Source: a virus (taxonomy: Duplodnaviria > Heunggongvirae > Uroviricota > Caudoviricetes). Taken from it: a stretch of 44,441 nt of DNA. The notes below the pieces were generated by a model. The model was not told the origin of the DNA. It did not search any database and saw only the letters and a list, made by a program, of their open reading frames with translations. Shown here one piece after another: positions 17,706-19,600 of this stretch; position 1 is the stretch's first letter, and each line of letters starts with the position of its first letter. The stretch is taken from the IMG/VR virus record IMGVR_UViG_2778261530_000005. The stretch is one strand, 5' to 3'. A program made the translations under genes and the position numbers.

Positions 17706-18317
17706 ATGACAACTCAAATTTCTGTTGAAACTCTCTCCCCGATCACCCATAACCAGATTCCTGTTATTACCACCGAACTTTTGGCGCAGCTTTACGGCAC
17801 TGAGCCGGTGCGCATTCGCCAGAATCATCATGAGAACAAAGTACGCTTCGTTGAAGGGAAACACTTTTTCAAAGTTGTTGGTAATGACCTTAAAGAATTG
17901 CGGGTAGCTTTAAACTACTCACAAAATTTGCGGGTTACTTTAAGTAACTCACAAAATTTGCAACCATCTTTAAGAGGGTTACAAATTTCCCCGAAAGCCC
18001 GCTCCCTCATCCTCTGGACAGAACGCGGAGCAGCCCGTCATGCCAAAATGCTCGAAACCGATCAGGCGTGGGATGTGTTCGAAAAGCTGGAAGACTGCTA
18101 TTTCAGACAAAAGGATCCGTCAGCGCCAGCTTCATGCCAGAAAAGTTACGACTCGCGAGTTCTCTGTTATCAGCGAGGCGGTGTCACTGTTTCCACAATT
18201 CAGTTGCGGGATGATGATATTGTTATTTCCCTTGAGTCATGGCTGGAACTGGCGAGAGCCAATGGTTGGTTTGTTGTTCGCAGAGATAAACTGGTGGAAA
18301 GGCTGATGCAGCTTTAA
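17706..18317 (+). CDS. ORF6N/Bro-N-like domain protein with an internal 10-aa tandem repeat
   Basis: 203 aa; N-terminal region resembles the ORF6N/antirepressor N-domain; contains three 30-bp in-frame tandem repeats; first gene of the late transcript. Confidence 0.5.
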   Translation: MTTQISVETLSPITHNQIPVITTELLAQLYGTEPVRIRQNHHENKVRFVEGKHFFKVVGNDLKELRVALNYSQNLRVTLSNSQNLQPSLRGLQISPKARSLILWTERGAARHAKMLETDQAWDVFEKLEDCYFRQKDPSAPASCQKSYDSRVLCYQRGGVTVSTIQLRDDDIVISLESWLELARANGWFVVRRDKLVERLMQL

Positions 18318-18454
18318 AAAAGTTCTTGCAATTTTAGCCATAAACTGCTTCAATTCCGTTACGCTTCGCAAAGCTGTATCGCGAGGCGAACCAAGCGCAT
18401 GAACTTTACCAGAACCCGCCATTGAGCGGGTTTTGTTGTTTCTGGAGAACACCC

Positions 18455-18727
18455 ATGAAATTTTATGAATTATCTTCTGATTCCCGATCTCAGGCCAAAA
18501 TCACACTGGGTCAGTTGATTGTGGCTCGGGCTAACACCGGGGTGGATGATTTTGAAAATTTGGGGCATTGCATCGCTGCCGCGTTTATTGCGATGGAGCG
18601 CCATGAAAGCGCCCCTGAGGTTGGTGAGGGGCGTAGCGGGAACGGAATACCCGTTAATGGCGATCAAAAACTAGCATCCAACGTCGTGAACGTGATGATT
18701 CACTATCCGTGTGACTCTATAGCGTGA
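18455..18727 (+). CDS. Hypothetical protein (Q-S junction cargo)
   Basis: 90 aa from MKFYELSSDS…; no recognisable family. Confidence 0.4.
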   Translation: MKFYELSSDSRSQAKITLGQLIVARANTGVDDFENLGHCIAAAFIAMERHESAPEVGEGRSGNGIPVNGDQKLASNVVNVMIHYPCDSIA

Positions 18728-18783
18728 CAGCGACAGTAAATTGGGTAAAATTTTCTACGCTGCAATATGCGAAAGGGGATGAA

Positions 18784-19353
18784 ATGAACGATCTGCCCGA
18801 TGACTACTTTCTTGATGCTGACGATGATCTTGTCGATTTTCTTGAAAAACAGGGTGAAGACTGCATAGGTGAAATCTATCGGTCAAATTCAGTAAATAAA
18901 GAAAATGGCTATAAGCTGTTGAGCATCCTAATCGTCGGTATTGGATCTTCATTTTTGCTGTTAACGCAAAAGACGCAGATTGACTTTCTTAGCGCAGGCA
19001 TTGCCGTTTTCACCGTGTACTGGTCAGTTTGTGCTATTTATCTTGTTATTAATGTGCTGACGGTTCACACATACGGACTTGTTTCCACATCACCTGCAGA
19101 TTTGTATACCGAAGCTTATAAAGGGATTTGCGAGTCCGATTTCGAGAACCTTAAGGCAAGGGGTTTTGTCGGTAAAAATGACCGCCTTTCAGTGATGAGG
19201 CGGTACAGATTGAAAACGTTATGTGTGACTGCTGATGAGTTGCTCCAGGTCAATGAAACCATAAGAACCAGACTGAAAAAAGCAAGGATAGCGACTATCC
19301 TTGCTCCTGTTTACGCGATTATTATTTCAGCTATCACTTACCTTTTTTTCTGA
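18784..19353 (+). CDS. Hypothetical membrane protein with acidic N-terminus (Q-S junction cargo)
   Basis: 189 aa from MNDLPDDYF… with AAAGGGGA ribosome-binding site; about three hydrophobic helices; AT-rich relative to flanks. Confidence 0.5.
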   Translation: MNDLPDDYFLDADDDLVDFLEKQGEDCIGEIYRSNSVNKENGYKLLSILIVGIGSSFLLLTQKTQIDFLSAGIAVFTVYWSVCAIYLVINVLTVHTYGLVSTSPADLYTEAYKGICESDFENLKARGFVGKNDRLSVMRRYRLKTLCVTADELLQVNETIRTRLKKARIATILAPVYAIIISAITYLFF

Positions 19354-19480
19354 TTCCTTCAGCGGAATCACCAACGATCCTTCTACCGACTGAAAAACGG
19401 TCGGGTTGAACTGGGGCCGGTTTTTGCTGCTGTGTTGGCTGTGGCTTGCTTTCACCTGCCGGCTTGTTTGACTGGCTCAT
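19331..19480 (-). CDS. Candidate small convergent ORF (49 aa, Pro/Gln-rich)
   Basis: Hand-translated MSQSNKPAGESKPQPTQQQKPAPVQPDRFSVGRR…; GGAG ribosome-binding site 7 nt upstream; overlaps the 3' end of the membrane-protein gene; could be spurious. Confidence 0.2.
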
Positions 19481-19574
19481 CTAATTCTCCATATTTGATA
19501 AGGTTATCTTTGGCGATTTAACGATATCAAACACGAGGATATACCGCCAGAAGCTTAATCTGGCACTCCATCTG

Positions 19575-19600
19575 GCCCCGGCATGTCCCGGGGCTTTTTC
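19575..19600 (+). terminator. Rho-independent terminator between cargo genes and holin
   Basis: GCCCCGG-CATGTC-CCGGGGC hairpin followed by TTTTT. Confidence 0.5.

Follow-up and report, generated by a model that had tools for sequence, protein, structure and literature searches.

The interval between the gene for a phage antiterminator, Q, and the holin gene was analyzed in a 44,441-nucleotide virus sequence of the class Caudoviricetes (IMG/VR record IMGVR_UViG_2778261530_000005), the whole of which we call the window and which is 100% identical to a prophage in the chromosome of Escherichia coli BCE049. We propose, with a probability of about 0.7 for the full explanation, that this interval is a mosaic of independent modules, consisting of an antirepressor switch, a short promoter-terminator unit belonging to Q, and two rare accessory cassettes. 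The initial annotation had described it as three cargo genes that follow a Q-dependent late promoter (PR') and its terminator (tR'), in the position taken by stx in Shiga-toxin (Stx) phages. The three open reading frames (ORFs) are real: those of 203 amino acids (aa) (17706-18317), 90 aa (18455-18727), and 189 aa (18784-19353) are all open, and RefSeq has the same three coding sequences in BCE049, flanked by the genes for a DUF1133 protein and a lambda-family holin; one product is annotated as an ORF6N domain protein and the other two as hypothetical proteins. The description of the interval as a variable accessory slot was also borne out, as related prophages carry differing combinations of Q-to-holin modules, with all three listed genes present together in 5/5426 complete E. 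coli genomes. The single cargo block downstream of PR' and tR' did not hold, since the ORF6N module appears regulatory and the candidate late promoter lies 3' of it, and the gene list had overlooked both a fourth gene on the minus strand (19334-19480) and the unit at 18326-18440. Sequence identities, RNA family matches, covariation, and synteny were observed directly; the activities, the Q dependence of one promoter rather than another, and the function of the cargo are predicted from them.

The first module, 17432-18317, is by its sequence a self-contained antirepressor switch of a known type, that of P1 immI and Gifsy-1 isrK-anrP, with a predicted activity. Its parts are as follows.

17432..17461, plus strand: promoter PisrK (TTGACT-18-TATATT, 10/12 in a consensus scan), formerly read as PR'
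17455-17507, plus strand: c4-a1b1 targets (RF03163, 50.5 bits; gathering threshold, 46.7)
17468..17544, plus strand: small RNA (sRNA) IsrK, with a1/b1 hairpins and an intrinsic terminator (Rfam RF01394, 75.5 bits; gathering threshold, 50)
17523-17544, plus strand: IsrK terminator from the terminator scan, formerly read as tR'
17570..17653, plus strand: C4-type antisense RNA, the equivalent of Gifsy-1 STnc1160 and P1 c4 (RF01695, 66.7 bits; gathering threshold, 45)
17657..17698, plus strand: C4 target region in the leader of the antirepressor gene (ant), from pairing and covariation, with b2 (UUGGCGU, 17657-17663), a2 (GAAACC, 17684-17689), and the Shine-Dalgarno (SD) sequence (GAGGG, 17694-17698), followed by the ATG at 17706
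17706..18317, plus strand: antirepressor gene, an AnrP homologue with an ORF6N N-terminal domain and a variable C-terminal domain (PF10543, E 5e-19)

Thus a C4 RNA lies 5' of ant, IsrK has its own promoter and terminator, the targets covary, and the product is homologous to AnrP. Because the Rfam models place isrK there, 17432-17461 and 17523-17544 are the promoter and terminator of IsrK. The TTGAC and TATATT hexamers of PisrK are kept in the window, Gifsy-1, the nin region of VT2-Sakai, and phage pPE4. No LexA box was seen at PisrK by eye, no formal scan having been run.

Ten modules were aligned, namely those of the window (17428-17728), Gifsy-1, pPE4, Tyrion, phiV10, 118970_sal3, and phiP27, together with one E. 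coli and two Salmonella prophage copies. Two parts of C4 stay unpaired in its fold: a', a loop with the sequence UCGGUUUC, and b', the segment ACGCCAA. Across the ten modules, the 7-nt b' segment was paired in 70/70 cells with b1 in IsrK and again in 70/70 cells with b2 on the 3' side of C4, with double compensatory changes at 4/7 pairs and five specificity types. None of 500 shuffles reached the observed values, and slid controls fell to 21-51% paired. The specificity classes of C4, b1, and b2 (GGCGU, AGCAC, UGCAC, GGUCU, and GGAAC) are mutually exclusive, and the a' loops differ among them too. In 10/10 modules the a' loop is complementary to a 6- to 9-nt site at or just 5' of the SD of ant, each loop fitting its own target best. 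One Salmonella prophage (locus L028) carries two modules of different specificity.

Some observations weigh against a switch that operates exactly in this way. No module has a shorter a2 match than the window, with only 6 nt, and this match does not cover the SD but lies 4 nt on its 5' side. Duplexfold energies for whole C4 molecules paired to the leader or to IsrK were no better than those of shuffled controls, so the case for the C4 targets rests on covariation. In addition, the frame of orf45, the translation-coupling ORF of Gifsy-1, is broken here by a 2-nt indel, and as a result the ORF opened by the conserved AUG at +107 has 33 codons and ends 31 nt short of the ant ATG. Another ORF of 18 codons (17653-17709), which starts beside b2, retains the ATGA overlap with ant. 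Details of the switch may therefore differ from those in Gifsy-1, as the orf45 frame is not conserved and a2 is short and 5' of the SD.

In Gifsy-1, transcription from PisrK yields the short IsrK together with an untranslated read-through isrK-orf45-anrP mRNA, anrP translation increases about 140-fold when IsrK is provided in trans, and AnrP raises the antQ operon mRNA and induces the phage (PMC4825925). The stable RNA STnc1160 derives from the read-through transcript (PMC4825925); judged by its position and by Rfam, it is the C4 RNA. In P1, full repression of the immI antirepressor genes requires the C4 antisense RNA (PMC8198154, where Citron and Schuster 1990 is cited on the role of C4). For the window, we propose that a constitutive-type promoter would produce the short IsrK RNA with its a1/b1 hairpins, while read-through transcripts would supply both the C4-type antisense RNA and the antirepressor mRNA. 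The a' loop and b' segment of C4 would pair with a2 and b2 around the start of the antirepressor gene, thereby preventing its translation. IsrK, carrying a perfect copy of the b site, would titrate C4 or remodel the leader and so turn translation on, and the antirepressor would then inactivate a noncleavable, helix-turn-helix (HTH)-only prophage repressor, which would switch on the early operon and Q.

The ORF6N domain named in the initial annotation was found by Pfam at the E value listed above, but the toxin or exclusion role offered for the protein gave way to another one, as it is a homologue of AnrP, the Gifsy-1 antirepressor, behind an IsrK/C4 leader. It matches phrog_2379 ("anti-repressor") from end to end (E 9e-93) and is 52% identical to AnrP (STM2616; E 4e-64, BLASTP), which occupies the same locus position; the first 27 residues and a central WTERGAARHAKMLETDQAW block are identical. 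In PADLOC, its only match was that of the ORF6N domain to candidate PDC-S05 (E 5e-4). A tandem repeat of 30 bp x 2.1 (85% match) at 17898-17961, in the part coding for the ORF6N domain, adds 18 aa compared with AnrP, and ant genes of Stx phages share this allele. By homology the protein is an antirepressor and a component of the induction switch, with its activity being a prediction. The candidate prophage repressor (8719-9180, minus strand, 153 aa) has an HTH_3 domain only and no S24 peptidase domain. HTH-only repressors without a peptidase are inactivated by an antirepressor rather than by RecA-stimulated cleavage (PMC3121763), so antirepressor-type induction fits the domain content of this repressor. 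The surrounding immunity region (8719-9969) is Rac/Gifsy-like, with the HTH-only repressor followed by divergent YdaS- and YdaT-like genes, and shows a short similarity to the C terminus of the Gifsy-1 repressor.

The module is also mobile. VT2-Sakai, like numerous further Stx1 and Stx2 phages, carries a segment 97-98% identical to positions 17432-18109 of the window, placed within the nin region, 2.5 kb 5' of Q, and flanked by ninE and roi. The homology to the Stx-phage ant genes ends past the ORF6N domain (at about codon 134), and the C-terminal domain is presumably an exchangeable, repressor-specific part. Elsewhere the module stands after a Q82-type Q in Gifsy-1, after a DUF1133-type Q in the window, and beside tail-fibre genes in phiV10 and Tyrion. 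The pPE4 copy comes from "Actinobacillus phage vB_Apl-pPE4" (L004, PP818812.1), which is 87-89% identical to the window over Q-isrK-ant, and its host label looks doubtful given this identity to an E. coli prophage.

This distribution bears on the initial annotation, in which 17432-17544 was a Q-dependent PR' and tR' and the three genes were an stx-equivalent late cargo, strongly expressed on induction. The layout is canonical for such a promoter, as 17432-17461 overlaps the Q stop codon and a strong terminator follows about 60 nt on. In addition, a variant Q C terminus (17326-17435) is contiguous with this promoter, and both together differ from the corresponding sequence of phage vB_EcoS-666R9 (666R9); in Gifsy-1, isrK likewise follows antQ directly. 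Even so, we regard this explanation as quite unlikely, because the same promoter-RNA-ant module occurs far 5' of Q in the Stx phages, adjoins tail-fibre genes in two others, and follows two unrelated types of Q, so that PisrK is not a Q-specific PR'. Moreover, the transcript starting from it is IsrK, or a1b1 of the c4 system, according to Rfam, and the conserved unit that accompanies DUF1133-type Q genes is located elsewhere, at 18326-18440. One promoter is unlikely to serve both the Q82 and the DUF1133 types, since each Q family is taken to load at a promoter-proximal site of its own. No significant shared sequence or structural similarity was reported among Q families (bioRxiv 10.1101/651190).

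The features that belong to Q in our reading of the interval as a mosaic are the following.

16881..17435, plus strand: Q-like antiterminator gene of the DUF1133 type, a distant relative of Q21 (PF06576, E 6e-108; phrog_753)
18326..18440, plus strand: Q-proximal unit with candidate PR', pause element, and tR', from its conservation next to Q elsewhere and the terminator scan
18326-18331, 18350-18355, and 18360-18365, plus strand: -35 hexamer TTGCAA, -10 hexamer TCAATT, and second -10-like hexamer TACGCT of this unit
18413-18434, plus strand: terminator of this unit (AACCCGCCATTGAGCGGGTTTT), from the terminator scan

The Q protein matches phrog_753 ("anti-termination protein Q-like"), exceeds the cutoff of the PF06530 model (Phage_antitermQ, the Q21 family) by a small margin (27.5 versus 26 bits), and gives a weak collinear alignment with the Q21 structure 6p18 (E 0.0016). 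Phage 666R9 has a close Q (83% identical) and no ant module, and the sequence directly after its Q stop codon is 92-96% identical to 18316-18445 of the window, which here follows ORF6N. In Edwardsiella, a unit of the 18326-18440 type likewise stands directly after the Q stop codon, although the Q protein is only 33-34% identical. DUF1133-type Q loci were taken from genomes of about 29 species, and 30 loci were examined, consisting of 28 of these, 666R9, and Edwardsiella L010. In 24/30 we found T(N)AATT, TA(N)GCT, and a terminator within about 130 nt of the Q stop codon. The TA(N)GCT motif is the second -10-like hexamer, lying a few bases after T(N)AATT and often preceded by TGn, and the terminator, whose stem is almost always AACCCGC...GCGGGTT, is found 35-76 nt beyond it. 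Two DUF1133 Q genes (90% and 57% identity) are on contigs labelled Candidatus Nanosynbacter and Vagococcus (L030 and L036), which look like contamination.

A published definition of the Q cassette places the Q gene, a promoter, a sigma-dependent pause element, a terminator, and the late genes in this order (bioRxiv 10.1101/651190). The 18326-18440 unit fits this definition, but lies 0.9 kb from Q here. Its conservation makes it the probable PR', together with tR', which insertion of the antirepressor module would have displaced by 0.9 kb, and we predict that it depends on Q. On the other hand, its promoter hexamers are weak by consensus and were missed by a simple promoter scan, and the unit could be a terminator of the early operon only; both points count against this assignment. 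Two other promoter candidates were rejected. The pair formed by a promoter at 19468-19495 and the terminator at 19574-19600 has its -35 hexamer in a cassette and its -10 hexamer in the holin-linked segment, and the conserved sequence there is independent of the Q family; a promoter match at 2059-2088 of L003 is inside the conserved Q coding sequence and was judged fortuitous.

A parallel case is provided by isrJ. In an Enterobacter prophage, it immediately follows a Q82-type Q and precedes the next gene, and in Gifsy-1, whose Q is also of the Q82 type, it comes after anrP. It would thus seem that, in both phage types, Q and its short terminated unit were separated by insertion of the isrK-C4-ant module. 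The positions of IsrJ (RF01393) are 3909-3980 in the Enterobacter prophage (L019) and 33406-33480 in Gifsy-1 (L007), and isrJ had no Rfam match in the window. In view of these positions in Enterobacter and Gifsy-1, transcription from a Q82-type late promoter seems to begin with the Salmonella sRNA IsrJ as its terminated leader.

The rest of the interval, up to the holin, holds the accessory cassettes.

18455..18727, plus strand: gene 2, encoding a small helical protein (phrog_26625, residues 1-72 of 76)
18724..18751, plus strand: promoter-like site 5' of gene 3 (GTGACA-16-TAAAAT; scan, 10/12)
18784..19353, plus strand: gene 3, encoding a predicted 189-aa inner membrane protein with three transmembrane (TM) segments and an acidic N-terminal helix (phrog_11870)
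19334..19480, minus strand: overlooked gene for a basic (+6) 48-aa protein (phrog_14506, E 3.5e-13; SD GGAG)
19493..19531, no strand assigned: conserved element just 5' of the minus-strand gene, with the core GGCGATTTAACGATATCAAA at 19512-19531
19574..19600, plus strand: intrinsic terminator 5' of the holin (scan: 8-bp stem, 7 GC pairs, and T-run)
19698..20039, plus strand: lambda-family holin (PF05106, E 1.9e-27), the right boundary of the interval

Gene 3 belongs to an unannotated family of about 160-200 aa with no Pfam model, whose 145 homologues are all from Enterobacterales (E. coli, Klebsiella, Citrobacter, Salmonella, Yersinia, Serratia, Proteus, Morganella, Providencia, Edwardsiella, and others). 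The family has 94 representatives among 1.84e9 proteins, and its length and 27 invariant residues are kept across at least 9 genera. The AT-rich membrane protein with an acidic N terminus that the initial annotation described was found again in the composition of the gene (GC, 41%, versus 49-51% around it), in three TM-like segments, and in a net charge of -10 over the 43 N-terminal residues. AlphaFold2 (AF2) modeled a bundle of three long helices whose ends are the three TM segments (predicted local distance difference test [pLDDT], 85.9), and a fold search with this model returned generic helix-bundle matches only. The conserved acidic N-terminal motif DDYFLDADDxLVDFLEKQGE (residues 4-25, 18784-18850) loosely resembles the FtsZ C-terminal peptide, DYLDIPAFLRKQ, which may be a coincidence. 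The hexamers of the promoter-like site are identical and at the same distance in Edwardsiella, and a TAAAAT -10 hexamer is present about 33 nt before the gene 3 ATG in 7/9 alleles. Together with the terminator at 19574-19600, the GC content of 41%, and a variable presence, this hexamer gives gene 3 the features of a moron by sequence. The terminator, which the initial annotation had placed after the three genes, is indeed a hairpin followed by a T-run; it stays with the lambda-family holin in 666R9, L005, and L006.

The 48-aa gene is convergent with gene 3 and overlaps its 3' end by 20 bp. In 8/9 context types, gene 3 overlaps a convergent gene for a basic protein of about 50 aa, and homologues of the 48-aa protein are found at the same overlap in E. 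coli, Serratia, Edwardsiella, and Proteus, with 33-83% amino acid identity. The protein is conserved at the amino acid level while the DNA is about 67-75% identical, and the SD and the 20-bp overlap are kept. A Salmonella homologue of gene 3 that seems to be without the small partner weighs against a fixed pair.

The element at 19493-19531 links gene 3 and its partner to gene 2. It is about 40 nt long and flanked by an inverted repeat (TTTGATA / TATCAAA). A scan of 16 further loci, BCE049 (L001) among them, showed its 20-nt core with 0-3 mismatches 5' of each minus-strand partner gene. The core is likewise present in the window, where it is unique and 0 occurrences are expected by chance. The loci carrying it (L003-L006, L008-L011, and L017-L023) include some in which it lies 5' of an unrelated 92- to 95-aa partner of gene 2, and they are from prophages with four Q families. 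It is probably the promoter or operator of the minus-strand gene; its role may be that of a promoter, an operator, or a recombination hotspot.

Gene 2 starts 15 nt after the terminator of the Q-proximal unit and is the first gene after it, as in Enterobacter prophages. Its family comprises 15 clusters only, usually of 63-76 aa, with a conserved core of codons 1 to about 55. The homology ends near 18669, and the last 18 codons are outside the family and derive from the neighboring module across the junction. AF2 predicted a helical hairpin at residues 8-52 and a tail with pLDDT below 50; with a mean pLDDT of 57 and just two helices, the model was of too low confidence and too plain a shape for a fold search. 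Pfam, NCBIfam, and PADLOC gave no significant family for gene 2, and PHROGs gave a family of unknown function only. The homologues of gene 2 are normally paired with the convergent 92- to 95-aa gene, and this original partner would have been replaced in the window. Because both cassette types share the 20-nt element, they appear to have recombined into the arrangement seen here, and 18455-19531 would thus be cargo derived from two kinds of convergent two-gene cassettes with a common minus-strand control element. The window-type allele of the 189-aa cassette was found in 7/5426 complete E. coli genomes and gene 2 in 23/5426.

Such a junction raises the alternative of functionless recombination remnants, which would comprise the 90-aa and 48-aa ORFs and possibly the 189-aa one. 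The junction-derived, predicted disordered tail of the 90-aa ORF and the rarity of the exact three-gene combination (that in 5/5426 genomes) would agree with this. Nevertheless, it is the least probable of the explanations considered, because the 189-aa family has retained its length and invariant residues across genera, the 48-aa protein has been conserved over diverged DNA along with its SD and overlap, and gene 2 has a 55-aa core whose conservation extends from E. coli to Serratia.

In every context examined, gene 3 lies between Q and the lysis cassette, with Q of the PF06530, PF03589, and DUF1133 types and with differing holin families. The synteny of gene 3 and its overlapping partner is kept between four Q families and several lysis cassettes. 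A component of lysis timing, such as an antiholin, a holin modulator, or a membrane potential sensor, formed by the 189-aa protein with or without the 48-aa partner, might be expected in this position just 5' of the lysis cassette and 3' of Q. The product is a small multi-TM protein, and its gene would share the Q-driven transcript with the holin. We still consider this role unlikely, as the gene is seen with lambda-S-type holins, with Phage_holin_8 plus holin_3_7, and with other or unrecognized holins, which makes a specific holin partner improbable and argues against a dedicated lysis role. The protein has no holin or antiholin family match and is linked to at least three lysis cassettes. 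Its gene is absent from most close relatives that have the same holin (L005; allele in 7/5426 E. coli genomes), is preceded by a promoter-like site of its own, and is atypical in GC content. The initial annotation had called the 90-aa and 189-aa genes unrelated to lysis, and this stood: neither matches a lysis family, and their co-occurrence with at least three holin families and four Q families indicates that they are not conserved lysis components.

As for toxin or exclusion cargo, the slot does contain uncharacterized cargo in the 90-aa and 189-aa genes, but toxin or defense homology was found in none of the products. None of the four products matched a toxin family in Pfam or NCBIfam, no tRNA genes were found in the window, and its Q-S interval had no nucleotide similarity to that of lambda. 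The cargo would be read by Q-modified RNA polymerase on induction, with gene 3 having an apparent promoter of its own as well. An autonomous, moron-like two-component module would fit the promoter-like site and low GC content of gene 3, its convergent overlapping partner, and the contrast between an acidic head and a basic partner. On these features, we tentatively suggest that the cargo may be a membrane effector with a small neutralizing or regulatory partner, acting in exclusion or abortive infection. Somewhat more speculatively still, gene 3 with its 48-aa partner, and perhaps gene 2 with its 92- to 95-aa partner as a sister cassette, may represent an undescribed two-component prophage system in the Q-to-lysis slot across Enterobacterales, possibly serving exclusion, abortive infection, or lysogen survival.

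Database comparisons speak against such a role. The 189-aa/48-aa pair had no significant match in PADLOC, Pfam, or NCBIfam and matched only families of unknown function in PHROGs; for the 189-aa protein, PADLOC returned only a chance-level match (E 0.029). The alignment of this protein with P22 SieB, lambda SieB, and lambda RexB by hhalign gave probabilities below 1%. When 38 distant relatives of the 189-aa protein were scanned against Pfam, there were only subthreshold matches (8xMP, PycTM, and several DUFs), with PycTM and 8xMP in 1-3/38, and the literature on 8xMP was uninformative for the 189-aa protein.

Two further loci were noted outside the interval. One is a hok/sok type I toxin-antitoxin locus in the nin region at 15188-15362 (sok, RF01794, 113 bits; hokD is annotated in BCE049). 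The other is a 314-aa ORF on the minus strand (21358-22302), between the lysis cassette and the small terminase gene, where RefSeq has only a 182-aa hypothetical protein; this may be a cargo slot.

For Gifsy-like E. coli prophages in general, the first promoter-terminator pair after Q need not be PR' and tR', and is here an sRNA switch. Since the module is 97-98% identical in the nin regions of many Stx1 and Stx2 phages, it could influence the induction of toxin-encoding phages. The five exclusive C4/target specificities suggest a heteroimmunity-like code for antirepressor control, as between P1 and P7. The accessory cassettes are real, conserved, and uncharacterized, in a slot known for fitness and virulence cargo, with a toxin not indicated so far.

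Among known systems, the isrK-orf45-anrP-isrJ region of Gifsy-1 (Hershko-Shalev et al. 2016, PMC4825925) has the same succession of Q, promoter, IsrK, C4-like RNA, antirepressor, short terminated RNA unit, and late genes, and its RNA leader is 81% identical to that of the window. However, its Q is Q82-like, whereas that of the window is of the DUF1133, Q21-like type; the orf45 frame is broken in the window by the 2-nt indel; and a'/a2 is GGUUUC/GAAACC in the window versus CGGUGAU/AUCACCG in Gifsy-1. In addition, the window antirepressor has the 18-aa repeat insertion and a diverged C-terminal domain, and the short unit after it is not isrJ. The immI region of P1 and P7 (c4 - icd - ant1/2) similarly carries a C4-family RNA 5' of the antirepressor on one transcript, duplicated a/b sites upstream (a1/b1) and downstream (a2/b2), and natural specificity variants such as those of P1 and P7. 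In P1, the promoter is controlled by the phage repressor C1. The window differs in that it has no icd homologue, a2 is placed right at the ribosome-binding region of ant, a1/b1 form an sRNA of their own that ends at a terminator (IsrK), and the antirepressor is of the ORF6N type.

The comparison with stx-type cargo holds for gene 2, gene 3, and the minus-strand partner, which lie between Q, with its promoter-terminator unit, and the holin, vary among close relatives, and would be read by Q-modified RNA polymerase. Unlike stx, they are without toxin similarity or tRNA genes, the ORF6N gene is regulatory and 5' of the probable PR', and the homologous ant module of Stx phages is in the nin region. 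Morons are autonomous promoter-gene-terminator insertions in lambdoid phages, a concept of Hendrix and Juhala. The 189-aa gene resembles them in having a -10 hexamer about 33 nt 5', a lower GC content, a terminator 3', and unrelated phage backbones around it, but differs from them in being part of a convergent overlapping pair whose element is shared with a second type of cassette.

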